DNA of 31,073 nt from a virus (IMGVR_UViG_2602041669_000008), one strand, 5' to 3'; counted from the first letter of the stretch, positions 12,373 to 28,842 are shown. A program made the numbers and translations. Notes: generated by a model not told the origin, from the letters alone.

Positions 12373-12442
12373 CCTGTCACCTACTGATTAGCCCATGTCA
12401 ACTAATCAACGTCGAATATAATACCCTCGATTAAAGAAATAG

Positions 12443-12459
12443 CAATACATTAGAGCAAT
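12443..12459 (-). promoter_or_regulatory. C1 operator-like site (ATTGCTCTAATGTATTG, 14/17) upstream of lpa
   Basis: Direct read; abuts the stop codon of the upstream ORF. Confidence 0.5.
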
Positions 12460-12460
12460 T

Positions 12461-13504
12461 TTATCTAACGCTCGACGAATGACTTGTGATAGCGCCGACT
12501 CCAAGCGCGTAATCAAAGAACAATCGTTGATGCATCGCCAGCCTACCGTGCGTCTTCTCCCAATTATCGCGGTCACGCTCAATATCACGCTGGCATGACT
12601 GGCACAGAGGAACAGCATAAATGTCATGCGCGCATAATCGACTATGACGAACGATATAAGGCGTAATGTGAGCGCCAGCTCCCGCAGCTCCACAGCCACA
12701 GCATGGACGGGAAGCCACAAAATCCATGTACTCGGGCAATTTTAGCGATTGAAGTTTTGGTATTTTGAAATGCGCCATGCCAGGGTCGGCGTCAACATCC
12801 ACAGGGCATACTTTTGCACGCATCGGCGCGGCGCGTTCTTCCATCATCTGAACATATGCTGTAGCGCGATCGTCATACGGGCGAATATCCGCCTCTTTCA
12901 GAGGTCCGCTATCCTGCGGAGTAGCCTTCATCTTATTTATTGATATGCGGCAGACTTCTTCCGGCATCAGGTGCATCATGTTGCGCATGAAAGCCCACCA
13001 GCACAGCTCCTGAATACTTAAATCATGGCTATTTGAAAGGCCCATTTCCTGACGGGCGACATCCAGTATCCAGTTAACGCGATTATTGTGCAGCGTTTCT
13101 TTCAGCTCATTAAAACCACGCATCCGGTAATGGTTATCGTGATGCCAGCACAACAACACCGCGCTATTGTCTCGTTCAGCGTGGACAATATGGTTGTCAC
13201 ACCAACTACGATCTGCGGCCTGGCATTGACCCTCTTTCCTACGCAACCACGCCACCAGCGCGTCAATTCCACCAATACGGCGAAACAGTTCATCGCTGTT
13301 AAAAAACGGCTGCAACGCCTCATTTGTTGCCATGGTTTGCTCGGTAACAACGAGGCCGTCTTCCATGTGCTCGATTAACTCACGCGGCACCGGCTCCATA
13401 ATAAATTTACGGCCAGCCTCCACCAGCTTTCTGACCTCCTGATCCACTTTGAACGTGGCGAGGCCAAGCTCTTTCTGTACAAAGGGAGTAATTACGGCTT
13501 TCAC
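12461..13504 (-). CDS. Hypothetical Cys-rich protein (347 aa); positional equivalent of P1 pdcB
   Basis: Track ORF; GTG start with AAAGGTG 4 nt upstream; no family recognised. Confidence 0.6.
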
Positions 13505-13531
13505 ATCACACCTTTAATCACTGATTGGGCT

Positions 13532-13711
13532 TTATCTGCTGCCCGGCATTCTCTGTTTAAGCACAACCATTTCCTGACGGCATAACACAGCAATAGCGGT
13601 CCTGACTCCAATTTGCTTACCAACCAGGTATTGCTTTACCTTGCGGCGACTCACGCCATCAAGAAGCATCTTTAACGCTTCACGGGACAATTTGTTGTAT
13701 TTGCGTGCCAT
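13532..13711 (-). CDS. Small basic protein (59 aa); positional equivalent of P1 pdcA
   Basis: ATG 13709-13711 with GGAG 8 nt upstream, 5 nt after the doc stop; in frame with track ORF 13532-13732. Confidence 0.45.
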   Translation of the reverse strand: MARKYNKLSREALKMLLDGVSRRKVKQYLVGKQIGVRTAIAVLCRQEMVVLKQRMPGSR

Positions 13712-13715
13712 TAAT

Positions 13716-14096
13716 CTACTCCGCAGAACCATACAATCTACGTAACGTGTCGGCGACAGAAGATACAGATATCTCGCCAGTCGCAGCGCCTACAGTAAGG
13801 TCTGCCAGTTCAGGTGAATCAAATACCTGCACCCCGTTACGGCGTAGAAATAGCAGCGCACTGTTTAGCGCGGTACGCTTATTGGCATCATTGAATATAT
13901 GCCCTCTCGCTGTAGCCACCAGGTAGGTGGCGGAGACTTCGAAAAGGTCGGTGATCTCTTCGTAGGCAACTCTGGCCTGAACTCTCCCGATAATGGCCTC
14001 TGCCCTACCCGGATCAGACATTCCCGGCAGGCCGCCGTAGCGGCTTATATTCGCATCATGAAGCGCAATAAGTTCTTCCGGTGATATATGCCTCAT
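13716..14096 (-). CDS. doc: Doc toxin (126 aa, Fic-fold kinase)
   Basis: Track ORF; motif [11 protein letters not shown]; start overlaps the phd stop (TAATG). Confidence 0.9.
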
Positions 14097-14317
14097 TATC
14101 GGTTAACCAGTTCCTTGTTGGTGGAGTCCAGGGTGTCAAACAGGGATGCAAATTCAGCATCCAGCGCCGCTTTTTTGTAGGCTTCGAAAGTAGCCTTGCT
14201 GACAATTACTGCTGGCTCACGGCCTCTGCGGGTGATTTCAACCTCTTCCCCGGCTTCAACATTGTTGAGCACTTCAGAAAGGTTGCCACGCGCGGTACGG
14301 AAGTTAATGGATTGCAT
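14096..14317 (-). CDS. phd: Phd antitoxin (73 aa)
   Basis: [40 protein letters not shown]... as remembered for P1 Phd; in frame with track ORF 14096-14332. Confidence 0.9.
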
Positions 14318-14389
14318 AAACACCTCGTGCACTCGTTATGTGTACACAATTATAAACTTCACAGGCATAAAGCACCAGCACTTTGCAGC

Positions 14390-14779
14390 TTAAATAACCG
14401 GACAATCATCAAATTCCCCACTTCGGGCATCATTGATGACATGAGTGATCACACCAAAAACAGCATTACTGCCCGTGTATCCATCGTCATCTACTGGTAA
14501 CGCCTCTTTCTTCCCGGTGCTTAAATCCTCCAGGTGCTGGCGCGGATACTTCCTGTATCTCTTTATGCGATATTCACCCTCCATAGCGCACACAAGCAGA
14601 GAACCATCAACCGGAGTAAGCGAGGAATCAACCACCAGCAAAGCACCCTGCAATATTCCCTCACGGTGATGGCTATCAGCTGCCCGCATGAAGTAGGTCG
14701 CTGAAGGATGTCTAATTATCTGCTGATCAAGAGAAATTCGGCTTTCAACATAATCCGCCGCAGGAGAAGGGAAGCCCAT
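14390..14779 (-). CDS. humD: HumD (UmuD'-like, 129 aa)
   Basis: Track ORF; GFPSPAADYVE... resembles processed UmuD'; GAGGT 8 nt upstream of the ATG; LexA box just upstream. Confidence 0.85.
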   Translation of the reverse strand: MGFPSPAADYVESRISLDQQIIRHPSATYFMRAADSHHREGILQGALLVVDSSLTPVDGSLLVCAMEGEYRIKRYRKYPRQHLEDLSTGKKEALPVDDDGYTGSNAVFGVITHVINDARSGEFDDCPVI

Positions 14780-14797
14780 AGCGTTTTACCTCAATGA

Positions 14798-14817
14798 TAC
14801 TGTTTATTCATACAGTA
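14798..14817. promoter_or_regulatory. LexA (SOS) box TACTGTTTATTCATACAGTA
   Basis: CTGT-N8-ACAG palindrome 19 nt upstream of the humD ATG. Confidence 0.75.
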
Positions 14818-14902
14818 TACATTGAAAAGGCATAGTTTGTGAAAGCGGGGTTTGTAGGCGCGCCACGCTGGGGGCTAATCACATTTCTCCCCCATCTTGC
14901 CG

Positions 14903-15154
14903 TTATTTTTTTGGTGCATCCTCGTTCTGATACACCGGATCGCTCCCTTTTGGCAACTGGAGGCTTAACTGCCGATAGTGCCGTAACCGTTCCATGAAAT
15001 AGGTGCGCAGATTCTCTGGTTGCTCGCGGGCTACCTGTTCAGCTATGACAGGTATGTTCAATCGCTCTTTGTACGCCACACCGCTGGCAGCCAGATCAAC
15101 GTTAACCTTATCCCGTTCTTCCTGACTTTTAGCTGCAATATTCCAATCGTGCAT
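14903..15154 (-). CDS. hot: Hot, homolog of DNA polymerase III theta subunit (83 aa)
   Basis: [39 protein letters not shown] closely parallels HolE; internal ATG at 15152-15154 of track ORF 14903-15175. Confidence 0.85.
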
Positions 15155-15295
15155 ATCAAATCCCATCCAGAACAATTGCGTAACGACTATTATTTAACCA
15201 GCAAAGTAACTTTTAATTTTTTTTCTTTTCCCATTGATTTTTGTGCACAGCTTATCTGCCTTGCCGTGCGCAGAATCAACTTTTTTCTTCCTGAT

Positions 15296-15304
15296 TTATC
15301 CACA
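15296..15304. promoter_or_regulatory. DnaA-box 9-mer TTATCCACA in a coding-poor region
   Basis: Exact consensus 9-mer; single copy, so function is uncertain. Confidence 0.25.
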
Positions 15305-15603
15305 AAGTTATGCACTTGCAAGAGGGCCATTTTCTAAATATTGTGATGTTTCACAAATGAAATGAATTTTGATTAATGAAGATAAGGAGAAAATTTGAGA
15401 TGCAATCATGACGTTAATAGATAGGGTCTGCATTACAGACCCCATCCGCATCAAGGAATTAGCCGTTCCCTGATGTTGTTCCGAAAACATGTGCCGTAAG
15501 CTCACGTTAACGACTTTCTTTCACCGAATCCAACTATATAGGGGTTGGGTTTCTACGTCAACGTGAGCAAGTGCTCCTTTACATTTGACAAGGAACCACC
15601 TTA

Positions 15604-15741
15604 ATGACTGCTTTTTTTCAGTTCCTGAGTGCATTTTTAGATGCGCCTGTTATTAGCCAGATTCTGGCGATCATCCTCATCATCGTTTTGATTTTGCTTT
15701 TAAGGTCAGTAAAAAATGGAATTATGCACTGGCTTACTTAA
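15604..15741 (+). CDS. Candidate small hydrophobic peptide (45 aa, one predicted TM segment)
   Basis: ATG 15604 with AGGA about 10 nt upstream; MTAFFQFLSAFLDAPVISQILAIILIIVLILLLRSVKNGIMHWLT; below the track size threshold. Confidence 0.3.
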   Translation: MTAFFQFLSAFLDAPVISQILAIILIIVLILLLRSVKNGIMHWLT

Positions 15742-15815
15742 TGTTCAGTGAAACATTAAAATCTCCTTGATGTGGAAACAATCATTTTCTGTATGTGCTG
15801 GTGGGTACCTGTAGT

Positions 15816-16178
15816 TCAGCTTTCGTTGGCATTTAACTTCGTCTTTGCTTTCTCCACCAGCAACTTCCAGATGCCTATTTCATTAGCAGCCGCCTTGATG
15901 GCGGCATAAAAAGCATCTTGCTGATCGTAACGCTGAATCTGTTTTTTCAGTTTTGCCTCCACCAATTTAATTTCATTACGTGCTTTCTGAAGCCGCAGCG
16001 CCGCCCGGTTACGTCTGTTCTTGTATAGCGCGTTAATCTCTGATAATTGCTTTAATTTACCAGCCTGACTGCGGATTATCGCCTCTCTGACTTCTGCCGT
16101 GCGTCTCATCTGATCTCTTAAGAGTTCACCGTTTTCGATAATTCTTTCAAGGTGTTTGATGTGATCTGCAACTCTCAT
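15816..16178 (-). CDS. Hypothetical coiled-coil protein (120 aa)
   Basis: Track ORF; start overlaps the stop of the upstream 310-aa ORF. Confidence 0.6.
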   Translation of the reverse strand: MRVADHIKHLERIIENGELLRDQMRRTAEVREAIIRSQAGKLKQLSEINALYKNRRNRAALRLQKARNEIKLVEAKLKKQIQRYDQQDAFYAAIKAAANEIGIWKLLVEKAKTKLNANES

Positions 16179-17107
16179 ACTTCACCCTCGCTTGTATCGC
16201 CAGCATCCACCAGCGGCAATAAAGCCCTGGCCATCTTATGAACCAATAGTGCATCAATAATGCCAAGCGTATGCCCCGGCTTAATGTTTAATGCCGCCTC
16301 AAGGTGACACCTTTCCAGGCCACTTTTCTCGGCTTGTTTATGATGATCTGGTGTAATAACGTCGCCCAAAACACGGCTAATTCTTTCTCGTAATTGCTGG
16401 GTGCCAGCACACTTGATCGCTGTATCGTGGAGACGGTTAACCAGTTCGCGATAAACATGCGGCTTAATTCGGATACGTTCACCGGTGACGCCCTTTCCTG
16501 GTGCTGGCACCGAACTATCCGGAATATCCGGATAGTTGCCAGCCTCGTAAGCTACCCGCAGCCAGTGCATGAATGTTTCAGTGGACACACAACCACAGTC
16601 CACATCGATTTTCCCGCGTTGCTGTTCCAGCCATTGCCCAAAATCCAACCTGTAAGTCTTACTTTCAAGTTCATCACCATTGAACTCGACTTTCTGCGAC
16701 GCTATGAGAGCTGATTCGTATTGTTCGCGAGTGACAACTGACTGGTATTCATCGCTATCAAGGTCACCAATTGGAAGCTCAATCTCACAACAAAAATTGC
16801 GCCCAAAGAAAGTGTCTTTTTTGTGGTCTGAGCCAAAAGCAAAAGTCGCGCATGGTGCCATTAAATTGACACTGGGTAGGTAACAATAACTCATTCCATC
16901 AGGCCACCCGCCGCACTTAGGCAGTTCCTTCACTAACAAGTCGATAAACTTCATTTTTTTATCATCTTTGCAAGCCGCCAAAGCCATTTGGGCAAGTGCC
17001 AATACTTCATCTGCCGTATATCCAGCACCGTGACCATACATTTCGATACGGGAAATAATCTCTGATATACGCTCTTCAGTGATTCTGGTCATTTCTTTTT
17101 GCGCCAT
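16175..17107 (-). CDS. Hypothetical protein (310 aa), Cys-rich
   Basis: Track ORF; AAGGAA upstream of the ATG; no family recognised. Confidence 0.6.
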   Translation of the reverse strand: MAQKEMTRITEERISEIISRIEMYGHGAGYTADEVLALAQMALAACKDDKKMKFIDLLVKELPKCGGWPDGMSYCYLPSVNLMAPCATFAFGSDHKKDTFFGRNFCCEIELPIGDLDSDEYQSVVTREQYESALIASQKVEFNGDELESKTYRLDFGQWLEQQRGKIDVDCGCVSTETFMHWLRVAYEAGNYPDIPDSSVPAPGKGVTGERIRIKPHVYRELVNRLHDTAIKCAGTQQLRERISRVLGDVITPDHHKQAEKSGLERCHLEAALNIKPGHTLGIIDALLVHKMARALLPLVDAGDTSEGEV

Positions 17108-17463
17108 TTCTTTTCACATTCCTTAGTCCATTTTTCAATGTTCATTTTGGCAATATCAGTCATTCCATCACCTAAGAAATACTTTCTCCGGTACGTCTTG
17201 CACTTAAACCACACTACAACAGCCACCAGCCAGAAAATAAAAGGCCATACAGCAATACCAACTCCAGCCGCGATAAAGCCCAATAGCCATAAATGAAGCT
17301 CTCCAACTTCTGTTTGCGGCAATATTCTTAAAGAATTAAGCAGCAGACTGAAGGAATAGTCGTATGCATTGGCGGTATAAGACATGCAATCCATATAATT
17401 AAAGTCATAGCCTGCGGCTGCCGCCCATAATGGGCGGTCAAGAAAATGTTTTAGTGTCATCAT
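17089..17463 (-). CDS. Putative membrane protein (124 aa; two hydrophobic segments, basic C-terminus)
   Basis: Track ORF; low-GC gene. Confidence 0.5.
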   Translation of the reverse strand: MMTLKHFLDRPLWAAAAGYDFNYMDCMSYTANAYDYSFSLLLNSLRILPQTEVGELHLWLLGFIAAGVGIAVWPFIFWLVAVVVWFKCKTYRRKYFLGDGMTDIAKMNIEKWTKECEKKWRKKK

Positions 17464-17469
17464 ATAAAT

Positions 17470-17763
17470 TTAAGGTTCAGACCAGTTATCTTCAATAGCA
17501 ATGCTTAATCTTTGTAGCCATTCTGCTAATTTCAGCATTGCTTCTCTTTCGCTTAAACCACGAGGAAAATCATCAAGCGAAATTGTTGGCTTGAAGCTCC
17601 CGTAATTATCTATTTCAACAGTCAGATTTTGCTCCAGCACGGTATTCCTTACGCGGCTATTGTGCCGAAGCAAATATACTGAACGTGATTTATTGGTTTT
17701 ATGGTCAAACTGATATTCGGTAAGTATCATCTGGCTTTTGCCATGACTATTACCTCTCCACAT
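17470..17763 (-). CDS. Hypothetical protein (97 aa)
   Basis: ATG 17761-17763 with GAGG 5 nt upstream, in frame with track ORF 17470-17859; low-GC. Confidence 0.5.
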   Translation of the reverse strand: MWRGNSHGKSQMILTEYQFDHKTNKSRSVYLLRHNSRVRNTVLEQNLTVEIDNYGSFKPTISLDDFPRGLSEREAMLKLAEWLQRLSIAIEDNWSEP

Positions 17764-17770
17764 ACTTACC

Positions 17771-17893
17771 TCACTTAATAAAACAACTCCATGCGTAGTT
17801 GATGATTTTTTCCCACGTAATATAAATCTGCACTCCGGCAGTAAAACCAAAGCCAACAATTGCTGAAAAAATCAAAACATTTACTTTTGACAT
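17771..17893 (-). CDS. Candidate small hydrophobic peptide (40 aa)
   Basis: MSKVNVLIFSAIVGFGFTAGVQIYITWEKIINYAWSCFIK; its stop lies 8 nt before the next ATG; weak purine-rich RBS. Confidence 0.3.
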   Translation of the reverse strand: MSKVNVLIFSAIVGFGFTAGVQIYITWEKIINYAWSCFIK

Positions 17894-17941
17894 TATAAAT
17901 TTTCTCTCGGTGTCGTAGGTGATAGCACCATAATTGATAAT

Positions 17942-18175
17942 TTAGTGAGTTAGCAGTTCCATTTTTTGGATGATTTCCGCATGAGCATCATCGTTATCAA
18001 CACTTAACTCGTTTAATGCCTCTCGCACTACATCAACTTCTTCTGGTTGGAAGAAGTCATCTCGGTAGTCACCAAATAGAACCGAAACAAGCCTGCCACC
18101 AGCAACATCAAGATTGGCGCTAACAGGTGGCTCTTTGCCATCCTCAAATTCGACTACAAAAGTTATTTTTCCCAT
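17942..18175 (-). CDS. Hypothetical acidic protein (77 aa)
   Basis: ATG 18173-18175 with GGTGGT 5 nt upstream, in frame with track ORF 17942-18193. Confidence 0.5.
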   Translation of the reverse strand: MGKITFVVEFEDGKEPPVSANLDVAGGRLVSVLFGDYRDDFFQPEEVDVVREALNELSVDNDDAHAEIIQKMELLTH

Positions 18176-18177
18176 CG

Positions 18178-18261
18178 TTACCACCAGCGACAAATTGAAT
18201 ACAAACCCAGTGCTGCCGCCATCACAATTCCTACCGTGGTGAATGCTTCAGGCCAGCTCAT
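18178..18261 (-). CDS. Candidate tiny hydrophobic peptide (27 aa)
   Basis: MSWPEAFTTVGIVMAAALGLYSICRWW; ATG overlaps the stop of the upstream DUF551-like gene (ATGA); its own stop is 2 nt before the next ATG. Confidence 0.25.
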   Translation of the reverse strand: MSWPEAFTTVGIVMAAALGLYSICRWW

Positions 18262-18800
18262 TGATTCACCTCCTGCGGCGGTTCTGGTAGCGGCATCCAG
18301 AACAAGGCGTTCCCTAACCACGATAAAGTGCCGTCGCTCAACTCCACGTATTCCCCTTGCACCTGGCCTGCCATATACTCGCCGTGCTTTGAATAAATTA
18401 AAATCCAATCATCTTGAGCGGGCATTCGCTCACTACAGCTTATCCAACTATCCGGAGTTACCGGAGAGTTGCCATTTACATCGAAGTTTGGCTCTGCGTC
18501 CTGAACCAGGAGGATGTAACCATTCTTGGCAGTATCAAGTTCTAACGCCTCGGTGACGGTGCCGAAATAGCGATTACCTAAATCAGCATCACAAGTGCTT
18601 ACATCAATGGAAACTTCCATGCCTTCGATTAATTCTGGCAAGTTGTAAGTTTGGCTTACAGGCTCTGCTTCCAGCGATGCCAGTGCAATTCGTGCCAGTT
18701 CTTCCGCTTCTTCTGCTGGCAGTACAACGTTGCTACCAGGTCCGTATGTTTCGCGCCACTGCTTGATTGTCAGCAGTCGCTCTTTGGTAATAGTGATCAT
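18258..18800 (-). CDS. DUF551-like phage protein (180 aa)
   Basis: Track ORF; C-terminal W...CSERMP...W...WMPLPEPP signature. Confidence 0.65.
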   Translation of the reverse strand: MITITKERLLTIKQWRETYGPGSNVVLPAEEAEELARIALASLEAEPVSQTYNLPELIEGMEVSIDVSTCDADLGNRYFGTVTEALELDTAKNGYILLVQDAEPNFDVNGNSPVTPDSWISCSERMPAQDDWILIYSKHGEYMAGQVQGEYVELSDGTLSWLGNALFWMPLPEPPQEVNQ

Positions 18801-19006
18801 TTGTTAATCCTCAAAACTTTATGCCCGGGCGCAAAAGCACGCGTTTTGTCTTTGCTTATTCGCCAGCCATCCTTGCGCGCCTCTTTTGCACAGCCAGCCC
18901 ATGACGTACCTATATACTCACCGAAGTCTGGCACTGGATATACACCTTCCGTACACTGGCGGCAGTCACAATAGAGATGCATTGTGTAACTTGCGGCAAT
19001 AGCCAT
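18797..19006 (-). CDS. Small Cys-rich protein (69 aa)
   Basis: ATG 19004-19006 with AAAGGAG 7 nt upstream, in frame with track ORF 18797-19078. Confidence 0.5.
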   Translation of the reverse strand: MAIAASYTMHLYCDCRQCTEGVYPVPDFGEYIGTSWAGCAKEARKDGWRISKDKTRAFAPGHKVLRINK

Positions 19007-19007
19007 A

Positions 19008-19196
19008 TCACTCTCCTTTAGTGCGCAAGTGGTTTTTCCAGCGGTTTTGCGCCGCGCTGGGCTTTTTGCAAAAACCACAATCCATCATCCCGTAATATTT
19101 CATCAACCCCATCCGTCGGTTGCTGAGTCTCACCCACTGCCAGACGCCAGGAGCGTTTCTACGAACTAACAGAATCTTTGCCTTACGGTTTTTCAT
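19008..19196 (-). CDS. Small basic protein (62 aa)
   Basis: Track ORF; AGGAG 9 nt upstream of the ATG; stop abuts the next start. Confidence 0.45.
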   Translation of the reverse strand: MKNRKAKILLVRRNAPGVWQWVRLSNRRMGLMKYYGMMDCGFCKKPSAAQNRWKNHLRTKGE

Positions 19197-19368
19197 CGCT
19201 TTGCTCTCCTGCGTCTCTTTGCTGCTCGTCGTGCCGCTGCAATACCGGTATGGCGGCGCTTTGGTGCCGGGATGATGTTGTCAGCCATCAGGACATACGG
19301 CTTTGCAATTAGCGCAGAAGCCCAAAAACGAGTCGGGTACGGTAACAAGCCAATACATGCCACACGCA

Positions 19369-19857
19369 CTACTCACCTCCGTTGATGCGAATGCCTGTTG
19401 CAATGCTGTTTATGATGCTGTCAGTGCATGGGGTAGAAAGCTGGGCATCTCCAGCAATTTTCATGACATCAACATCTGCATATCGAATACCGAGGTGTAT
19501 CAGACCGGCTATACCTGACTTAAGCCGAGCATTTTCCATAAACAGATCCTTTGCCCGCTGTTTTTCTGCCTCAAGCTCAACGCGCAGCTTCCCTACCGTT
19601 AGCGCAATTTCCTCGTTCTCCTGGTCGCGGGATTTGATGTATTGCTGGTTCCTTTCCCGTTCATCCAGTAGTGCCAGCACGGTTTCTGGTCCGGCCAGAA
19701 ATTTGAAGGCGTTGAGCGCATCAATATCCACACCGTAATCTTTAAGTTCCTGTTCACTTAACAAATCATCATCAGCTGGCAACATTAACAGGCGTTCCAT
19801 TGCTGGAATTGCACGTTCCGCCGCCTCACGCAGTGCCTGGTAATTAATTTCGCTCAC
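19369..19857 (-). CDS. Ead/Ea22-like protein (162 aa)
   Basis: N-terminus MSEINYQALREAAERA typical of the lambdoid Ea22-like family; start overlaps the upstream stop. Confidence 0.65.
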   Translation of the reverse strand: MSEINYQALREAAERAIPAMERLLMLPADDDLLSEQELKDYGVDIDALNAFKFLAGPETVLALLDERERNQQYIKSRDQENEEIALTVGKLRVELEAEKQRAKDLFMENARLKSGIAGLIHLGIRYADVDVMKIAGDAQLSTPCTDSIINSIATGIRINGGE

Positions 19858-20630
19858 TGGTTGCCTCCTTTGCGAAGCTGGGCAGCAAAGTCAACTAACC
19901 ACTCAGTCATTTCAACCTTCCCTACCAGATCTGAACCAGGGTGCATACAGCAATCACTCTGCGCCGCTTTGAAATCCTTATACTCATATTCTTGGGCCAC
20001 CAGATTTTTTGCAGCTTCTATAGCAGCATCCAATCCCTGCGCCCGCACTTCAGCCAGGCATTTGCGAAACTCGGAAACGTACTGTTCGACGCTCATTCCC
20101 CAGCTAAGTGGACATTCATTGAATGTTTCGCCTTCGTGCTCTTCATCAGGTAGCTCTTTGGTAAAGAACTCACGCTCAATGGCGTGGAGTGTGTCAGCAA
20201 AACGACGTAAGTTACTCAAACCTACCGTAATGGAGAATTCAGGAGCATCACATCCGACGCCCATCTGCTGATAAACGGCGGTTTTGAAGGCCTTAAGCCC
20301 CGCATTCTCCGCCACCAGCGCCGCGAGATTAGTCTCAAGCTCTGCAATTCGACACATAGCATCAATATTTGTGTCCTCCAGGCACTTAATTTCACCAAGC
20401 AGCTCCAGTGCAACCTTTGGGTTGAACGCGGCAACATGACGAGCGTTGTTCTCTGCATTTTTCTGTCCATCAAAGCCGGTCCATTTGATAACGTCTTCAC
20501 ATCGTTCATCACCGGGCGTGTGCACCGCATAAGTACCAGTATCCGTCGAAATAAATGCGACCCATTCGTCTGGTGTTGCCTTTTCTGCCGCCTCACGCAG
20601 TACCTGATAGTTAATTGTCATTCTCGCCAT
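19854..20630 (-). CDS. Ead/Ea22-like protein paralog (258 aa)
   Basis: N-terminus MARMTINYQVLREAAEKA, same family signature. Confidence 0.65.
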   Translation of the reverse strand: MARMTINYQVLREAAEKATPDEWVAFISTDTGTYAVHTPGDERCEDVIKWTGFDGQKNAENNARHVAAFNPKVALELLGEIKCLEDTNIDAMCRIAELETNLAALVAENAGLKAFKTAVYQQMGVGCDAPEFSITVGLSNLRRFADTLHAIEREFFTKELPDEEHEGETFNECPLSWGMSVEQYVSEFRKCLAEVRAQGLDAAIEAAKNLVAQEYEYKDFKAAQSDCCMHPGSDLVGKVEMTEWLVDFAAQLRKGGNQ

Positions 20631-21262
20631 CCTTCACAGTTGTAATCACTACAGCCTTCAAAATCATATGGGCTGTACTGCCAGGTTATTTTTCCGCAAT
20701 GCGGACAATTCCAACGCACCTTCCCGCTTCGCGACTTCTTTCTTCTGTTCTGCTCTTCCAACCAGTCAGGCATGACCAAACCTGCGCCCTGAACCATTGT
20801 TCTGCGGTTAAAGTTATTGATATTGAACGTCCGACGCTTTGCTGCATCAGCAATGGAAAATGGCAACCAAACTATTCCTGGTTCGTTTTTGTTGGCGACG
20901 CTAAAGATGGTCGCTTTACTGAAGTCATCTGTTGGCAATCCACCGTGTTGAAGCCAGTAAACATCGTTGCCGTTCCAGCTACCTTTTTTGTAGGCCACAT
21001 ACGCAGTGCAATCTGACTCAATCAGGCTTTCTGTAGGGATGTACTGGCAATCAACGTGCCACACAGCCATTGCATCCACACTATCGGCACAAACAGGCTG
21101 ATCGATATCTCGCCCACAATTCCAGGCTTTTTGGGCTTCTTCCAGCGTGTAAACATGAGCGCGATCGATATCAGAACTGTAACCATTGCCGTTATGGCAA
21201 TGGAATGAGGCGTTATTACCCACAGTTTCACGCAAGCACATCATGTAAAAACGGTTACTCAC
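20618..21262 (-). CDS. Hypothetical Cys-rich protein (214 aa)
   Basis: Track ORF; GTG start with GGGAGG 6 nt upstream. Confidence 0.55.
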   Translation of the reverse strand: MSNRFYMMCLRETVGNNASFHCHNGNGYSSDIDRAHVYTLEEAQKAWNCGRDIDQPVCADSVDAMAVWHVDCQYIPTESLIESDCTAYVAYKKGSWNGNDVYWLQHGGLPTDDFSKATIFSVANKNEPGIVWLPFSIADAAKRRTFNINNFNRRTMVQGAGLVMPDWLEEQNRRKKSRSGKVRWNCPHCGKITWQYSPYDFEGCSDYNCEGWRE

Positions 21263-21470
21263 TGGATGCCTCCCAGCAAATTTGTCTTATATAAGAACTG
21301 TTAACGCGCTTTACTTTCCCGTCGAACTCCAGTTTCTTTAGACGACGCAAAACGTATGCCGTTTTGAGTGTGCGATATTTATCCCTAAGCCAGTTGGTCA
21401 CGACGTAAGTCATACAGCGCCCGTGTTCTTCCAACACCCGAACTATTTCTTCGTCGGTTGGCTTGCTCAT
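21255..21470 (-). CDS. Small basic protein (71 aa)
   Basis: Track ORF in a tightly packed operon. Confidence 0.5.
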   Translation of the reverse strand: MSKPTDEEIVRVLEEHGRCMTYVVTNWLRDKYRTLKTAYVLRRLKKLEFDGKVKRVNSSYIRQICWEASSE

Positions 21471-21688
21471 TTTGTCGCTCCTTCAGCTTTCTCTACTTTC
21501 GCTGCCATGATTTCCAGCTTTTGTGCTGCCGATGCCGCTAACCTGTGAAATTCTTCATCTGTTTCAACTGGAATTGGTACAAACCTGACACCAATTTGAG
21601 CAAGGCTATGCGCCATTTCGAGACTTGCTCTTAACTCTGCTGGGGATGCTTTATTCAGGCCGACTTCCTCACAAATAACTGATTGCAT
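21467..21688 (-). CDS. Small hypothetical protein (73 aa)
   Basis: Track ORF; start overlaps the upstream stop. Confidence 0.5.
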   Translation of the reverse strand: MQSVICEEVGLNKASPAELRASLEMAHSLAQIGVRFVPIPVETDEEFHRLAASAAQKLEIMAAKVEKAEGATK

Positions 21689-21697
21689 ACGCTCGCC

Positions 21698-22423
21698 CTA
21701 CTGAATACGCTCAAACTCGATTACCCAAACCCAGGGATTAGCACTCCAGCTTTCTTCGCCGTAGATGGATTCCCACAGGCGCTGGAACGCAACCTTGGCC
21801 ATTGCGAAATCCCCCTTGGGAGTAAGGAATGTTCCCGGGTGATCAGGAAGCAAACTTCCAGCAGGCGGAACGCCCTCATCCCTTGCATCGCATTCGCTGA
21901 TATCGTTCAACCGCTCAACGCGCACGTTGGTAATTTCCAACAGGATGCGTGATGCCCATCGCGGCATGTGAATTGATGGACGCCACCCACCATCAAACTT
22001 TTCATTCACAGTGTGAGGTTTCCAGTCGGCATCATCGGGTATCGACCATAAACCGTAATCACCAGGCTTTTGCTCACAACTGGCCCGATAAATCCTTGCT
22101 GCGTTCTTCTCATCGCCACGACAAAGGTTGTCGTTCCAGTCCACACTGCAACCATCTTCATTGCCTAATATCGCCCATGTTTCACGAACCCAAATTCGAT
22201 CGCCGACGATACCAAAGGGGCAATTGAAAACACTGCTTACACCATCAGCCCCGTACCACTGAAAACCTGCACCAATTTCCCTAACCATCACTGGTGCTTC
22301 TGGACCAACTTCCGCAGGCTGATTTTTCATTATCCGCCGCGCCTGCGTTTTCCTTCCTTCGAGGATGGCTCGGACCATCTCATCGTTGAAAATCATGCCG
22401 CGCTCTTTCACTTCGCCTTTCAT
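21698..22423 (-). CDS. ASCH/PUA-like domain protein (241 aa)
   Basis: N-terminal motif FNDEMVRAILEGRKTQARR resembles the ASCH signature; AGGGGGA upstream of the ATG. Confidence 0.55.
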   Translation of the reverse strand: MKGEVKERGMIFNDEMVRAILEGRKTQARRIMKNQPAEVGPEAPVMVREIGAGFQWYGADGVSSVFNCPFGIVGDRIWVRETWAILGNEDGCSVDWNDNLCRGDEKNAARIYRASCEQKPGDYGLWSIPDDADWKPHTVNEKFDGGWRPSIHMPRWASRILLEITNVRVERLNDISECDARDEGVPPAGSLLPDHPGTFLTPKGDFAMAKVAFQRLWESIYGEESWSANPWVWVIEFERIQ

Positions 22424-22432
22424 GCATCCCCC

Positions 22433-22519
22433 TTACCCATGCGCGACGATGCCGCCAAAAGTGATAGAGAACAGCCAGAAATAGATCGAGGCCATAATGA
22501 TTTTGAATGCCGTGTTCAT
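22433..22519 (-). CDS. Candidate 28-aa hydrophobic peptide (type I toxin-like)
   Basis: MNTAFKIIMASIYFWLFSITFGGIVAHG; AGGAG 8 nt upstream of the ATG, preceded by CCAATCAATCA; stop is 9 nt before the next ATG. Confidence 0.3.
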   Translation of the reverse strand: MNTAFKIIMASIYFWLFSITFGGIVAHG

Positions 22520-22528
22520 ATTTTCAGC

Positions 22529-22578
22529 TCCTGTGATTGATTGGATACATGCCGCGCCTTACGGCATGTTTTTATTTT
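22529..22578 (+). ncRNA. Candidate antisense small RNA overlapping the RBS of the 28-aa peptide gene
   Basis: CATATT -10-like hexamer at 22517-22522; motif TGATTGATTGG at 22534-22544; stem CATGCCG/CGGCATG (22548-22568) followed by TTTTTATTTT; no plus-strand ORF. Confidence 0.3.
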
Positions 22579-22601
22579 CACTTTCTCTGTTTTAAAAATC
22601 A

Positions 22602-22618
22602 AGATTTATTAGAGCAAT
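22602..22618 (-). promoter_or_regulatory. C1 operator-like site (ATTGCTCTAATAAATCT, 16/17)
   Basis: Direct read; overlaps the stop codon of the HAD-like gene. Confidence 0.6.
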
Positions 22619-23124
22619 TATTGTTGATGGAGAAGCGCGTTTTCATACTCCCTGACCATTAACGTAAGTACGCCGTGACTCCTGAAAACACGCGCCACTT
22701 CAATCTTATCTTCCAGCGCGAACGCAATTTTACTTAGACCAATTTTCTTCAGGAGATCAATCTTTGCTGGACCGTCATTTCTGTCATCGGTGGCAGGACG
22801 CATAGATAGCAAAGGCTCCGCCCCATTTGTTACGTGCTTACGCAACCAGGCTCGTGTTTTATCCCTGGCTATCTCACAGCGCCCGGTTACAAACCAGAGG
22901 GTGTAAATGCCGGACAACTGGCGCACCATATCAATAACTGGAGTGATGGGAGCATCAGTGTCACAGGCAAGGTTAAACTCGTTCCAGTGCTCTGTTAATG
23001 CACCTTTGCCAGGTGGTGGAAGTAAATGCAGCCTGTCTTCCGTTGCCTCTGATATCGTCCCATCAATATCTACTATGACGATGTACGGACGTTCCTGGTG
23101 TGCGTGTTTATTGAAAATACTCAA
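22618..23124 (-). CDS. HAD-superfamily phosphatase-like protein (168 aa)
   Basis: Motif IVIVDIDGT (DxDGT); TTG start with GAGGAGG 4 nt upstream. Confidence 0.65.
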   Translation of the reverse strand: MSIFNKHAHQERPYIVIVDIDGTISEATEDRLHLLPPPGKGALTEHWNEFNLACDTDAPITPVIDMVRQLSGIYTLWFVTGRCEIARDKTRAWLRKHVTNGAEPLLSMRPATDDRNDGPAKIDLLKKIGLSKIAFALEDKIEVARVFRSHGVLTLMVREYENALLHQQ

Positions 23125-23143
23125 ATGCCCTCCTCATTGGACG

Positions 23144-23176
23144 AAAAAAATGCTGGTGGGAGCACTCCACCAGCAT
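23144..23176 (-). terminator. Intrinsic terminator on the minus strand between the 420-aa gene and the HAD-like gene
   Basis: 10-bp perfect stem ATGCTGGTGG/CCACCAGCAT followed by U7 on the minus strand, ending just before the HAD RBS. Confidence 0.55.
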
Positions 23177-23196
23177 TAAAAGTGACACTGTAACTA

Positions 23197-24459
23197 TCAG
23201 CGAACGTAAATAGTGCCGCCGTTCTCTTTTTCCCATGCATCGCTACGTGCATAGCAAACATCGAGAAGTCTTCTTGCCGCAGTTTCCTCTAAACCCAATT
23301 CGACAACCAACTGCTCATGACGGCGGGTAACCACATCAAACAGGGTATGCAGCCCTTTAGTTGCCAGATCATCAATGAATTCCGGTTCGAACGGCAGCTC
23401 TGCATCTGCCAACATAACCTCTTGCGCCCACTCAACTCGACGGACCAATTCCGGGCGACGGCTTTCCATCTCTTTACAGATCAATTCATGGAAGAACTCT
23501 ACCCAACCTTCCGGCTGGAACTCGCGGAAAATTGCCAACGGCTGGAAGTTTGGCATCAACCATTCGTTGATTCGGATATCAATGGCATAGCCCATGTCGC
23601 AGCAGAACTGATAAGCAAAGTCCAGCTTAGAAACGATATAAGGACGCTCGTTATTGAACTCTTTAGGCGATGAGATCCCATAAGCCAGGAGGCGCGGGAA
23701 GAAGGAGATTTGCCCTAACGTCGGATGAAGTTTGCTTGCAGGGAAACGGCGCTCAGTAATGCCATACATTTCCTTCTTGAGCGTCGCAAATTTGGCATTC
23801 TCATTAACCAGCGCGGTAACCTCTGCTTTTTTATTAGCAAATGCCACGCGCGCCTCGCTTGCATCTTTAATAGTTTTTTTGAGCTGTTGGTTAAGGTCGG
23901 CGACCTGCTTACGCAGTTCCTGTCGCTCGCTTTTAGCTTTGTTATAGCGTTTCTCAAGGTTAAAAGGATCAAGTTTCATGATCTCTTTATATTGAGATTT
24001 TAGCGTTGAAATCTGTGAGTTCCGCAGTTCAACCATCGCGGTCATTTCATTGAGTTTTGTTTCCAGCTCAATGCTTATACGTTCGGCATTATCAGCACGC
24101 TGGTTGGCGTCATGCGTCGCATCGTCGATCGCGTCCTGTTGCTGGCGTTTCAAATGTTCAATTTCCAGCTGAAGCTCTTCAATTTCTTTACCCTTCAGAC
24201 CGAGATCCAACTGCATATTTTCAGCTGCATCTACCAGGGAGTTATGGCTATCAGCTTCTGCGTTATAAACATCAATAAGCTGTGCGTGAAGCATCTCCGC
24301 TGACTGAACCGCATTATCAAAAAAACGTGCTGTGAGGTCATCACAACTAACGCGGCGTTGCGCGGCCCGGATGTTCTGGATAATGGCCGGGATACCGGCA
24401 TTCAGGACATCAGGGATACATACATTTTCGATTGATTGGTTTTGTGCTGAAGTGCTCAT
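23197..24459 (-). CDS. Hypothetical protein (420 aa; coiled-coil N-terminal half)
   Basis: Track ORF; CCAATCAATC lies within the first 10 codons. Confidence 0.65.
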   Translation of the reverse strand: MSTSAQNQSIENVCIPDVLNAGIPAIIQNIRAAQRRVSCDDLTARFFDNAVQSAEMLHAQLIDVYNAEADSHNSLVDAAENMQLDLGLKGKEIEELQLEIEHLKRQQQDAIDDATHDANQRADNAERISIELETKLNEMTAMVELRNSQISTLKSQYKEIMKLDPFNLEKRYNKAKSERQELRKQVADLNQQLKKTIKDASEARVAFANKKAEVTALVNENAKFATLKKEMYGITERRFPASKLHPTLGQISFFPRLLAYGISSPKEFNNERPYIVSKLDFAYQFCCDMGYAIDIRINEWLMPNFQPLAIFREFQPEGWVEFFHELICKEMESRRPELVRRVEWAQEVMLADAELPFEPEFIDDLATKGLHTLFDVVTRRHEQLVVELGLEETAARRLLDVCYARSDAWEKENGGTIYVR

Positions 24460-24460
24460 T

Positions 24461-24679
24461 TCAAAGTTCCGTATTAGCTTGTGCTTCGGTCATTTTTCCT
24501 AAGTATGAAGGAGGAAGGACTACGCAATTTGTATCCAGTCCCTCACCTATGGCAGCCTGTAAAATTCTGGCTAAGGTGAGTCTCTTGTTGCGATACCTGG
24601 TGATGACATGCCTGATACCGCCGGTCGGCGTAACAAAGGCGATCAGCCAGTAGTGATATTTCCGTCGGAATGGCCACAT
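24461..24679 (-). CDS. Small hypothetical protein (72 aa)
   Basis: Track ORF; AAGGTG 5 nt upstream of the ATG; a C1 operator overlaps its promoter region. Confidence 0.5.
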   Translation of the reverse strand: MWPFRRKYHYWLIAFVTPTGGIRHVITRYRNKRLTLARILQAAIGEGLDTNCVVLPPSYLGKMTEAQANTEL

Positions 24680-24693
24680 AGTGCACCTTGTAG

Positions 24694-24710
24694 ATTGCTC
24701 TAATAAAAAA
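24694..24710 (+). promoter_or_regulatory. C1 operator-like site (ATTGCTCTAATAAAAAA, 14/17)
   Basis: Direct read; in inverted orientation to the site at 24743-24759. Confidence 0.5.
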
Positions 24711-24734
24711 CGTGATGAGTGTACATCACGTTTT
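24705..24734. terminator. Bidirectional terminator-like hairpin between two C1 operators
   Basis: A-run, stem CGTGATG/CATCACG, then TTTT. Confidence 0.45.
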
Positions 24735-24742
24735 AAAAATAT

Positions 24743-24759
24743 GGAATTATTAGAGCAAT
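24743..24759 (-). promoter_or_regulatory. C1 operator-like site (ATTGCTCTAATAATTCC, 14/17)
   Basis: Direct read; immediately after the stop of the glycosyltransferase-like gene. Confidence 0.45.
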
Positions 24760-24760
24760 A

Positions 24761-25462
24761 TTATTCTGATTCTCGCTCAAAAAATGAGCTGATAAGGGGA
24801 AGCCAATCCTCTGACACTTCGCGAGGTCGCGGTTTGCCGTGGAAAAAGATTATTCGGCAGTCTTTTGGTAATGCCCCATTCCCCCTGGAGTAACGCGCGC
24901 TCGCATATTTTGAACCAGGTTCCACAACATCGGCCTTGTAACTTACAAACCATCCTGGATACAGATCCTGAAATGCTGGTGTATCATCGCCCATAACCTT
25001 TCGTAAGAACCCCTGGTCACCCCAACACTCAGTAGTGACACAACGAGAAATCCAACCTTCCGGATCTTGCCAGAATGAACTCCAGATATGCGCTTTAACA
25101 CTATTTGGTATCCACAGGGCACCGCTGCCACGATATTGTGGATGGTAAAAATCCCTAAGCATGGTGAAGCTGGTTGGTGGATGCTCTAGGATTGGGCGTA
25201 TATCACCGGCAATAACCGTGTCCAAATCCAGATAGAACAGATCATCGGTTATATCCGGTCGGAACAACTCGATTTTCGCCCACCAGCCACGGCACTTTTG
25301 CCACTGGTTGATCAATGGGACAACTTTGACGCCAGGTACATGTAAACGCTTCAGGTCTGTCAGGCAAATAATTTCATAGCCTTTTGGCAGTTGATTAACC
25401 AGCCACTGCACATCGGAAGCGTTATAGTCACCACCAGAGCGAAAAACTAAAGCAATCTTCAT
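24761..25462 (-). CDS. Putative nucleotide-sugar glycosyltransferase-like protein (233 aa)
   Basis: DxD-like motif YLDLDTV with upstream W-rich segment; start overlaps the stop of the phosphatase gene. Confidence 0.5.
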
Positions 25463-26151
25463 GCTGCACCATCACCTTTCACTTTCATCAATGTCAGGTT
25501 TCCGCAAAATACGGCACCAGTGTCGATATACTGCTGATTCCAGAATGTCTTCGGGCTTTTCACCGGAGTGTGACCAAAGATAAAACGATCTGCGCCCGAA
25601 ATTTCGCCACCAATATCATCCATCGAATCACTGATACGCTCGCGCGCCCAGACAACGTTGAAAAGCGGCACCTCCTTACCGAATTGGTATTCATTATCCG
25701 GATAGTCGGCATGGGCTATAACGATAGTTTCTTGCCCGGTGTTCAACTCAATGATATAGGGCAGACGCTTTACCAGCTCCACCAGCGCCCAGGCTAATAT
25801 TTCCTGATCAGTGTCCAGCATGAAGAACCATTGTCCGCCATTCATTAGCCAGTTATTCACGTTGCCATCTGGACTTAACGCATCAATCATCAGCCGCTCA
25901 TGGTTCCCCATCACTGCCCTGAACCAGGGCATCTGCAATAGTTCCAGACATTCGACATTTTCAGTACCGCGATCGATAAGGTCGCCGACCGATATCAGTA
26001 AATCCTGCGCCGGGTCAAAATCCACACGATGGAGTTCGGACATCAGTCTGGTGTAGCAACCATGCAGATCACCAACAACCCAGACATTCCTGTATTTGGT
26101 ACCGTCGATACGGTGATAAATTGTGGGTGCCATCATGTATTCTTCAGCCAT
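25459..26151 (-). CDS. ppp: Ser/Thr protein phosphatase, lambda-PPase-like metallophosphatase (230 aa)
   Basis: Motifs GDLHG, GDLIDRG, GNHE. Confidence 0.85.
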
Positions 26152-26759
26152 TCTTTAAGAGTCATCTGCGGAATACCTCCCATTTTCCCGCATGAAACAA
26201 CGTCAATCCGTTCACGCGCAGACTGGAATAACAAAGGCAGGTGACTTAGATTTTTTGGCGTGCCGCCGGAGTGAACGCGTGGTTCTTGTGTAGCGTCAAC
26301 GCCCACCAGGGCGACATGTTTGAATCCGATATGGAAAGCCAGGTTCAGAGCACCATATGCACTATTGCCGCTGGCAATTTCATTCTCATCTTCGCAAAGT
26401 CCGAAATGTGCGGACCAGCGCCACGCCCACCACTCGGGAGAATTCGTATTTTTTGGCTCCATGCCACGTTCAGCCACACGACGGAAGCACAGAACGCCGT
26501 CTCTGACTTCACGTTCTTTAACATCGGGTAGTGCCATGCAATAACAAACACCACGGCGACGGCGGCCACGACCAACGCGCCGCATATTGTCTGGCGATGG
26601 ATCAAGTGTGAAAAAATAAGAAGCGCGGTTCAGCCAGTCGATGGCCCCATTGACCGCTATAATCGGCACTCCGCGCGGCGCAACAAAGTTTGCGGCGCTT
26701 GGGCCACTGCCGACGATAATAACGCGATCACTGCCTCTAAATTTATTCTTGGGAAACAT
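26133..26759 (-). CDS. Rossmann-like protein with GSGPS motif, DUF115/Maf-like (208 aa)
   Basis: N-terminal [10 protein letters not shown]...IIAVNGA; AGGAG upstream of the ATG. Confidence 0.55.
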
Positions 26760-27319
26760 TGAATTGCACTGCTCCTACTTGCATTCAAAATATGTAAATC
26801 TGCGTGTTTTTTGCGGGTATCCAGGAACTGCTGTTGCCATTTTGAAATAGACACCTGCGTTGGATTCCGTAGTGCTTGAGGGTGCGCGCCATGCCAATGA
26901 AGGCCGTTTTGCAGAGAACAGTCATAGCCGACTAATACCACTACTTCAGCCCCTGATTCAGCAGCCAGACTGATAGCCTGCGCGCCGCTATTTACCCCTT
27001 CCGCCGGTCCACAATATCGCCTGTACTCCAACGAAAATGATTTCGCCGCCGCCAGGTTGGCTGTCACTTTGCGGAATCTCCCTCCCGGTATGGTGGATCC
27101 GTATTGCTTCCACCATGACAAATCACCGGCGTATAAGGCATAAATGTCATCGAACATCTGCCAGGAATTGTTAACCGCGATGATTGAACAGCCAGTTTTT
27201 TCTATAGCAGCACAGTCCTCACGAGTGAGTGACGGACCGCTACCGACACAAAAAACAGTCCTAGTCGCCCTGGGTGGTATGTTCATTCTCAGCTGCAAAT
27301 TCAGCCTCCAGGCGAGCAT
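26657..27319 (-). CDS. Paralog of the preceding DUF115/Maf-like protein (220 aa)
   Basis: N-terminal VFCVGSGPS...IIAVNNS; its 3' end overlaps the downstream paralog by 103 nt in another frame. Confidence 0.55.
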   Translation of the reverse strand: MLAWRLNLQLRMNIPPRATRTVFCVGSGPSLTREDCAAIEKTGCSIIAVNNSWQMFDDIYALYAGDLSWWKQYGSTIPGGRFRKVTANLAAAKSFSLEYRRYCGPAEGVNSGAQAISLAAESGAEVVVLVGYDCSLQNGLHWHGAHPQALRNPTQVSISKWQQQFLDTRKKHADLHILNASRSSAIQCFPRINLEAVIALLSSAVAQAPQTLLRRAECRL

Positions 27320-27482
27320 TCATTTCAGCGATTACAGGGTCCACTACAGCATCTGTTTCCTGTTCATTACGCGGCATGATCGATGCCAGCGATTCATAAT
27401 TAGCCTTGGATGACACGACTATTCTCCCGATGTTAATGTGCGCTATATCAAATGGCGCATATGTACTAATTAATTTATTATT

Positions 27483-28061
27483 TTAAGCAGCATGCAACCA
27501 CTTGTCGCCGTTCAATACATGCTCAATAGCCTCACCCTTTTTAAGGCTTATGTATTCCAGGATGGCGGTTATCGCTTGTTCTGCACCATACGCAAGAACG
27601 ACGTAGTAACCTTCCTCTCTAAGCCTGCGCATCCAGGCGATCTGCTCTTTCGTCGGGGCTTTACCATTTGGTTCTTTAAGCTCAATTCGCATGCCGTGAT
27701 AAATACCGCATGCTTTATCGAGACTCATGTCCGGATAACCTTTTTTCTGCCCTTCAGCTTTCATTTTCCCGGCGGTTGCTTTTGAACGTTTCCCTCCGTT
27801 AGGCGTTGCATGCAACAGCTCATAGATGTCAGGGTGCTTGCGTTCGAAGTAATCAAAAATGAAAACCTGCTCGAAGTGCTCGCAATTTCCGTCGCGCAGG
27901 TCTGGGTTCTTTGCCAGTGCTGCAAGTGCCTTCGCATGTGGAGAAACTTCTTTTACCGGCGCAAGCGATAAGAATGGATCCTTTTTGGTTTTTGGCCTGG
28001 ACCGCCCCTTATTTCTACGCTCACTAAAAGCCTGAAACTCTTCCTCAGTAAAGCGCAACAT
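27483..28061 (-). CDS. VRR-NUC-like (PD-(D/E)xK) nuclease domain protein (192 aa)
   Basis: Motif ...GYPDMSLD...GMRIELK consistent with D...E-x-K. Confidence 0.6.
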   Translation of the reverse strand: MLRFTEEEFQAFSERRNKGRSRPKTKKDPFLSLAPVKEVSPHAKALAALAKNPDLRDGNCEHFEQVFIFDYFERKHPDIYELLHATPNGGKRSKATAGKMKAEGQKKGYPDMSLDKACGIYHGMRIELKEPNGKAPTKEQIAWMRRLREEGYYVVLAYGAEQAITAILEYISLKKGEAIEHVLNGDKWLHAA

Positions 28062-28063
28062 AA

Positions 28064-28833: not shown

Positions 28834-28842
28834 GGGAAATGA

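Follow-up and report, generated by a model that had tools for sequence, protein, structure and literature searches.

The DNA analyzed here is a viral sequence of 31,073 nucleotides (IMGVR_UViG_2602041669_000008; the whole stretch is referred to below as the window), in which positions 18178 to 22423 belong to a run of small, closely packed genes extending from pmgT toward pmgU/pmgV of a P1-like phage-plasmid backbone, downstream of pap and of the C1 operator Op88, in the operon known as pmgT in P1 and as hea in P7 (Table 1). Punavirus records including P1, P7, SJ46, and RCS47 match window positions 12000-31073 at approximately 98% identity (megablast, phage collection), and the pap, pmgS, and pmgV products are 95-100% identical to those of P1, as expected of a Punavirus backbone. 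The window reads in the reverse orientation of the P1 map (local blastn against P1 62000-94800) and contains 11 C1-operator-like sites (consensus ATTGCTCTAATAAATTT; 0.18 expected), in agreement with operator positions in P1. Window positions 5765-30810 have 99.8% identity to plasmid pRM10386-1, in which the cassette is identical. We consider that the locus is best explained, with a probability of roughly 85%, as a P1-like early pmgT/hea bay holding a lambdoid-type cassette that has been deleted from reference P1.

An earlier annotation made from the DNA alone (hereafter, the sequence-only reading) had recognized the P1-like backbone, in agreement with flanks that are each 98% identical to P1, and had outlined a block of lambdoid-type accessory genes at 18258-22423. 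Every open reading frame (ORF) that it named is present where it was placed, on the minus strand, while the limits of the block require revision: the segment that reference P1 lacks spans 16551-21727, extending 1.7 kb farther to the left and stopping 0.7 kb short on the right.

Most of the assigned genes in the center of this segment belong to families that are familiar from lambdoid phages. Both Ea22-like proteins score far above the PF13935 gathering cut-off of 27 (112.8 bits for the 162-residue protein and 69.3 bits for the 258-residue protein), as does the DUF551 protein, recognized as such in the sequence-only reading, against that of PF04448 (41.2 bits versus 22). With lambda Ea22, the shorter protein shares 55% identity across the 100 residues of its N-terminal and coiled-coil portion (BLASTP, amino acids (aa) 1-101). 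The longer one, which is 71% identical to its homolog in a Shiga toxin 2c (Stx2c)-converting phage, aligns with lambda Ea22 by BLASTP over aa 6-23 only, a stretch that carries the motif INYQxLREAAE. The sequence-only reading had described the pair as tandem Ea22-like paralogs; family membership stands for both, yet the two proteins share an N-terminal motif of only about 15 residues, and they are therefore divergent family members rather than products of a recent tandem duplication, which we reject. The DUF551 protein has an N-terminal module that is also found in EaA-type proteins, and the N-terminal 143 bp and C-terminal 36 bp of its gene form separate conserved patches. A further gene, which the sequence-only reading did not mention, encodes a DUF1382 protein (PF07131, 100.5 bits against a cut-off of 27, E = 5.7e-29) that is 75% identical to lambda Orf63 over 59 residues and matches PDB entry 8dsb (E = 1.6e-23). 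No sequence relatives of the two Ea22-like proteins or of the DUF551 protein were found in the PDB.

The gene nearest to the operator has a different history. Its 241-residue product was suspected in the sequence-only reading to be ASCH-like, and the fold prediction is borne out by structural modeling rather than by a sequence match: Pfam ASCH (PF04266) gave no match even at E = 10, phmmer against the PDB returned only ASC-1 at E = 0.88, a profile of 25 sequences found no match in the PDB, and a first AlphaFold model from a shallow alignment was unusable (predicted local distance difference test score, pLDDT, 47.7). When 1.84 billion cluster representatives were searched with a profile, a family of 51,130 representatives was recovered at E at or below 1e-3, and five of 64 diverse homologs matched PF04266 weakly (best E = 1.3e-4). 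With the alignment of these 64 sequences the AlphaFold model reached a pLDDT of 89.4 and a predicted template modeling score of 0.85, and on this model the protein is predicted to adopt an ASCH or PUA-like beta-barrel fold with a large insertion in the domain. It is thus about twice the size of known ASCH proteins such as the N4-acetylcytidine amidohydrolase YqfB of E. coli or the ASCH protein of L. crispatus (3s9x), from which it also differs in having an insertion within the fold, and it stands apart from proteins with the annotated ASCH domain in lacking the PF04266 sequence match. The sequence-only reading had counted this gene among the families typical of lambdoid prophages, but it matches P1 pmgT over the first 232 codons of the latter (99% identity) and is native to the backbone. 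In P7, SJ46, RCS47, and JL22 the gene is represented by an allele of 49% identity, and the cassette genes are partly different.

Table 1. Features of the pmgT/hea locus and collinear blocks of the backbone, with window coordinates (distribution is given for the phage and plasmid loci compared)
Feature	Coordinates	Strand	Basis and remarks
Collinear block	5878..7446		P1 94800-93232 (local blastn)
Collinear block	9158..14832		P1 93204-87530 (local blastn)
Collinear block	14900..16550		P1 86833-85182, 97.8% identity (local blastn)
Collinear block	21728..30810		P1 85183-76101, 98.7% identity (local blastn)
Segment not in reference P1 (5177 bp)	16551..21727	.	Local blastn; P1 contiguous at 85182/85183
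C1 operator Op88 (OpmgT of P1)	22602..22618	-	ATTGCTCTAATAAATCT; one mismatch to consensus; overlaps pap stop codon
28-aa hydrophobic small ORF (MNTAFKIIMASIYFWLFSITFGGIVAHG)	22433..22519	-	Shine-Dalgarno; between operator and ASCH gene; 93-96% conserved in all P1-like loci compared; annotated "membrane protein" in SJ46, unannotated in P1
Predicted ASCH-fold protein, 241 aa	21698..22423	-	Intact form of N-terminal part of P1 PmgT; P1-native
Lambda Orf63 homolog (DUF1382)	21467..21688	-	RefSeq start at 21658 gives 63 aa
71-aa protein, unknown function	21255..21470	-	phrog_9799, PHROG E 1.4e-43; in MH422554 only
214-aa protein, unknown function; P7 Upf87.6	20618..21262	-	phrog_2457, E 4.6e-119; C-terminal CxxC...C...C motif; 97-99% identical in P7, SJ46, a Stx2c phage, and P22-like 611R6
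Ead/Ea22-family protein, 258 aa	19854..20630	-	Pfam PF13935 E 6.7e-19
Ead/Ea22-family protein, 162 aa	19369..19857	-	Pfam PF13935 E 2.5e-32
58-aa protein	19193..19369	-	phrog_13831, E 1.1e-41; 100% identical in RCS47 and Stx2c phage
62-aa ORF, alternative or additional to 58-aa protein	19008..19196		RefSeq annotation of pRM10386-1
69-aa protein	18797..19006	-	phrog_926, E 2e-36 on aa 25-93 of longer ORF; 93% identical in RCS47 and Stx2 phage 86
DUF551 protein, 180 aa	18258..18800	-	PF04448 E 3.1e-10 on aa 118-176; phrog_60 E 6.9e-65
27-aa hydrophobic small ORF (MSWPEAFTTVGIVMAAALGLYSICRWW)	18178..18261	-	Read from sequence; ATG overlaps DUF551 stop
77-aa protein	17942..18175	-	phrog_3876, E 6.1e-53; in SJ46 only
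40-aa hydrophobic small ORF	17771..17893	-	ORF list; 98% identical in SJ46, annotated there
97-aa protein	17470..17763	-	phrog_1258, E 6.4e-49; only in P1-like SJ46, RCS47, and MH422554
124-aa predicted membrane protein	17089..17463	-	phrog_2638, E 1.2e-62; in P1-like elements only
310-aa protein	16175..17107	-	phrog_21459 and phrog_60; last 111 aa are P1 "PmgU"
PmgV, last conserved operon gene	15816..16178	-	100% identical to P1 PmgV

The position of the cassette suggests how it would be controlled. Op88 was assigned by transferring coordinates from the P1 annotation at 84293-84337, and the same procedure places the pmgT promoters predicted in the P1 record at 22574-22617. The minus-strand genes from Op88 to pmgV abut or overlap, and no strong minus-strand terminator was found inside the cassette. 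We propose a C1-repressed early operon that would start, directly after pap, at Op88 with its promoters and end at pmgV. The central 3.1 kb of the cassette holds genes of the lambdoid exo-xis (early-left) type: the Orf63/DUF1382 gene, two Ead/Ea22 genes, small genes of unknown function, and the DUF551 gene. Judging from its position, the cassette would be silent in the lysogen and would be switched on upon inactivation of C1, early after induction or infection.

A comparison with the exo-xis region of lambda and Stx phages gives this proposal its functional content. Both loci hold small, non-essential genes with little space between them, including an Orf63 gene (75% identity between the products) and genes of the Ea22 family, whose arrangement and direction with respect to a repressor-controlled early promoter are also shared. 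The window cassette differs in its flanks, which are P1 pap/pmgT on one side and pmgV on the other, and in being controlled by P1 C1 instead of by CI and pL; no exo, bet, xis, or int gene was found near it. Within the Ea22 family, a pro-lysogenic effect is known only for the lambda and Phi24B proteins (PMC7093339), whereas Orf63 favors lytic growth (PMC7093339, PMC10834534, PMC10869804, PMC8614690). By analogy with these homologs, the cassette products might tune the balance between lysis and lysogeny as well as host physiology, and our best guess is that they modulate the developmental decision or the physiology of the host. An alternative, which we regard as a real though minority possibility, is that the cassette is a defense or counter-defense island, shielding the lysogen from other phages or the phage from host immunity, and does not modulate development. 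Like typical islands of this type, the locus is variable, sits at a fixed position, turns over rapidly, and is made up of small genes with no known function. In addition, its other alleles contain DNA methyltransferases and a PAPS-reductase-family gene, and the ASCH fold is related to readers and hydrolases of nucleic-acid modifications such as YqfB. Against it, none of ten cassette proteins had a match in PADLOC, a search in which anti-defense families lay outside the scope. Moreover, a role in protecting the lysogen is disfavored because C1 would hold the genes silent in that state, an objection that leaves counter-defense early in infection unaffected.

The evidence for exchange with lambdoid phages lies in the nucleotide sequence of window positions 18180-21273, which form a fine mosaic of short patches with 88-99% identity to Stx-converting, P22-like, and other lambdoid phages. 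The matches of Stx2c-converting phages to positions 18265-21273 comprise seven pieces at approximately 97.6%, and other lambdoid phages match the same interval by the hundreds, at 90-99%. More than half of the complete E. coli genomes searched (3046 of 5426) have a match to the segment, at 6582 chromosomal places, and among the matches listed the chromosomal ones are confined to approximately 18180-21273. Across nine loci compared by local blastn, mosaic edges recur at 18265-18300, 18421-18473, 18658-18800, 19002-19197, 19177-19397, 19559-19683, 19826-19858, and 20293/20575-21273. The conserved patches coincide with gene ends or domain borders, namely the N-terminal module and C-terminal end of DUF551 and the N-terminal motif and coiled coil of Ea22, a pattern that homologous recombination at conserved linker sequences would give. 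In Stx2 phage 86, P22-like 611R6, and lambda, the homologs lie between exo or recT and xis/int, and the lambdoid order of DUF1382, Ea22, and DUF551 is that of the window relative to the early promoter. The modular exchange between phage-plasmid and lambdoid gene pools put forward in the sequence-only reading is upheld by these patches and chromosomal matches, and reference P1 holds at this position only the ASCH-like gene among those that were named.

We suggest that the cassette was most likely built up as lambdoid prophages residing in the same host recombined repeatedly with the element at short conserved patches; homologous recombination of this kind, at gene ends and domain borders, would amount to classical lambdoid module shuffling. 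Transfer in the opposite direction, from P1-like elements into lambdoid phages, or inheritance by both from a common pool, would account for the same identities, which are by themselves symmetrical, and the hosts concerned often carry P1-like elements as well. We nevertheless think it improbable: chromosomal prophages hold these families in much greater number and diversity (6582 versus 715 places) and in a fixed syntenic home between exo and xis, while in P1-like elements they are found in this one bay only.

What distinguishes reference P1 is the absence of the cassette, and the structure of its junction indicates that P1 is the derived form. The junction at P1 85182/85183 falls within genes, and the extra DNA of the window lies exactly there, inside pmgT. 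The first 232 residues of P1 PmgT (309 aa) are 99% identical to the window 241-residue protein; thereafter P1 PmgT continues as TRLATIRTF...NVSELSRMFIANWL..., which is an alternative reading frame of the 310-residue gene (spurious ORF 16288-16482). The residues that it lacks, WVIEFERIQ, form the last core strand of the ASCH-fold model and contain W233, which is invariant among the 64 diverse family members. P1 PmgU in turn equals aa 200-310 of the window 310-residue protein at 95% identity, beginning in the middle of an ORF that is full-length in SJ46 (98%) and whose C-terminal half is shared with P7 Upf89.5. A 401-bp probe of the P1 junction is contiguous in five of 403 matching plasmids, the two halves lying apart in approximately 99%, and among 19 phage records only in three of laboratory P1. 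Since the junction disrupts ORFs that are intact elsewhere and is shared by so few plasmids, a 5.2-kb deletion in the P1 lineage is the parsimonious reading, rather than an insertion in the element studied here. The P1-type junction shows a 2-bp "aa" microhomology and no flanking repeat was seen at it, which fits illegitimate recombination and indicates no specific mechanism. P1 PmgT and PmgU, both labeled "putative morphogenetic function," are 95-99% identical to parts of two window proteins (PmgT over aa 1-232, PmgU throughout) whose genes are intact and 5.2 kb apart. In P1 the two look like scars of the deletion, PmgT being a truncated ASCH protein fused to an out-of-frame tail and PmgU a 3' remnant.

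The opposite polarity, in which P1 is ancestral, its pmgT and pmgU are the original intact genes, and the long allele is a lineage-specific insertion, is very unlikely in our view. Reference P1 does grow and lysogenize normally without the cassette, and a short allele is present in a few natural plasmids. An ancestral P1 would nonetheless require that two ORFs intact elsewhere match its own genes only in pieces, that a conserved last strand present across a family of 51,130 representatives be missing from the original protein in favor of an out-of-frame tail, and that the separated state prevail in nearly all matching plasmids. Carriage of the cassette by a transposon or insertion sequence (IS) is likewise rejected, as no IS or inverted repeats occur at its ends and the ends lie inside ORFs. 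A different short allele is common in Salmonella and E. coli plasmids, many of which carry it, and is exemplified by NZ_AP025206.2 (2516-3694). Over 630 bp, this allele matches two separate parts of the P1 junction probe, together 65% of its length, and apparently encodes a 392-residue fusion-like ORF that joins the start of an ASCH allele to a PmgU-like end; it may represent a second, independent type of deletion.

That the block displaced ban and neighboring replication genes of the P1 backbone, as the sequence-only reading had proposed, can be set aside as next to impossible: it is correct that the window has no DnaB-like gene, but this is an effect of the window edge, because collinearity spans P1 94800 to 76101 and ends short of ban (P1 71295-72659), which lies about 12 kb from the cassette site between pmgT and pmgU on the P1 map, and pRM10386-1, with its identical cassette, has dnaB annotated about 3 kb past the equivalent of the window end.

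The bay itself is a known site of variation. The interval from pmgT to humD is variable region 8 of the eight hypervariable regions described in P1-like phage-plasmids, and JL22 was reported to have pmgT "replaced" by a gene cluster with ea22 among its members (PMC9603915); approximately 30% of the genes of P1-like phage-plasmids have been recently exchanged (PMC10879196). Region 8, P7 hea (upf86.8-upf89.5), and JL22 gp99-gp104 occupy the same site, downstream of pap and the C1 operator and upstream of pmgV. P7 hea also resembles the window in content, with an Ead-like gene (upf88.3) annotated at this locus and Upf87.6, which is 99% identical to the 214-residue window protein. The window allele differs from the other alleles of region 8 in its own combination of an Orf63 homolog, two Ea22-family genes, and a 180-residue DUF551 protein. 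Among plasmids that match both flanks, the span from pmgV to pap ranges from approximately 2.2 to 8.5 kb, and its contents vary among Ea22, EaA, DUF551, DUF4752, DNA methyltransferase, and PAPS-reductase-family genes. Matches to one part or another of the 5.2 kb occur in 681 plasmid records, and three records (NZ_CP028125.1, NZ_CP021336.1, and NZ_CP021340.1) carry the entire cassette at 100% identity. The locus is thus an accessory-gene bay across natural P1-like elements, with ends of P1 lineage (the ASCH gene on one side; the 310-residue gene and pmgV on the other) and a variable cassette between them. Lambdoid exchange at this locus is already known and is ordinary phage mosaicism; since the variable region has been published and the exact cassette is present in public plasmids, the phenomenon itself is not new.

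Several observations count against our interpretation of the locus as an early bay with a lambdoid-type cassette. The whole 5.2 kb is not demonstrably lambdoid, because nucleotide matches to its two outer parts, 16551-18257 (1.7 kb) and 21273-21727, are all but confined to P1-like elements, apart from a patch of approximately 80 bp and weak matches at 65-67%. The resemblance to exo-xis is incomplete: Pfam revealed no homologs of orf60a (DUF1317), orf61, orf73 (DksA/TraR-like), or ea8.5, a search in which the small ORFs were not compared by profile, and BLASTP found no relation between the C-terminal parts of the two Ea22-like proteins and that of lambda Ea22. No cassette protein matched NCBIfam or PADLOC, and all of the PHROG families that were matched are classed as "unknown function." Expression from Op88 rests on predicted promoters transferred from the P1 record, and for any single patch the direction of transfer is not decidable from identity alone.

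A more far-reaching form of the interpretation is that the pmgT/hea operon is the functional counterpart of exo-xis in natural P1-like elements, a repressor-controlled early cargo bay with Orf63, Ea22, and DUF551-type genes that would modulate the lysis-lysogeny decision or host physiology. The bay would be continually restocked from lambdoid prophages in the same host, Stx prophages included, and P1 would have lost it in the 5.2-kb deletion, which crippled the ASCH gene as well. We offer this tentatively and think it rather less probable than its negation. If it were true, the function of the bay would have escaped sixty years of P1 genetics, and the "morphogenetic" genes pmgT and pmgU would be scars.

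The practical significance lies mainly in annotation and in the choice of a reference. P1 is a poor and atypical reference for the pmgT locus, and with P1 as the yardstick the normal P1-like state comes to be described as "pmgT replaced." The label "putative morphogenetic function" likewise spreads from pmgT and pmgU to other annotations, despite their nature in P1 as a fusion and a remnant. The apparent origin of these two P1 genes as deletion scars is the one point of modest value here; we found no statement of it in the literature, in a search that did not extend to two key papers. Ongoing recombination of phage-plasmids with lambdoid prophages in the same E. coli hosts is evident from the near-identical patches shared with Stx-converting prophages, which agrees with published genome-wide surveys of phage-plasmid gene flow and adds no new principle. 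If the cassette genes act on induction or lysogeny like their lambda homologs, natural P1-like elements may differ in behavior from laboratory P1.

Three further observations concern the small features of the operon. At the 27-residue ORF, approximately 80 bp are 80-86% conserved in Stx phages of the 933W and VT2-Sakai types, and this stretch is unannotated in most of their records; an RNA was considered for the conserved patch (18178-18256) and rejected, since positions 15500-23300 gave no Rfam match at E up to 1 and the ORF fits better. For the 28-residue ORF, 84 bp recur at 97.6% in many unrelated conjugative plasmids, and in the P1 record the corresponding stretch is identical to DNA downstream of plasmid hsd loci. 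Between this ORF and the C1 operator, the plus strand at 22547-22569 has a strong terminator-like hairpin followed by a run of T, antisense to the operon; viewed on the coding strand, it is part of the 5' leader.

Elsewhere in the window, a 1.7-kb stretch (7447-9157) between c1 (6596-7447) and pacB (9156-10640) is not in reference P1, in which the gap between these genes is 25 bp. The matching segment of pRM10386-1 is annotated as encoding a KilAC-domain antirepressor and an Icd-like cell-division inhibitor, and the stretch resembles an extra immunity-type module adjoining c1. Positions 1-5877 have no match to P1 62000-94800 and include several C1-operator-like sites (1541, 3498, and 3973); within this part, 1-1196 match the compared stretch of pRM10386-1 at 91% and 1197-5764 have no match there. 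At the other end, positions 30811-31073 contain the start of an IS3-family element, with an inverted-repeat-like end (TGAACCGCCCCGG) and orfA from 30866. Because homology to both P1 and pRM10386-1 ends at 30810, directly after gene 7, this element apparently interrupts the start of gene 24.

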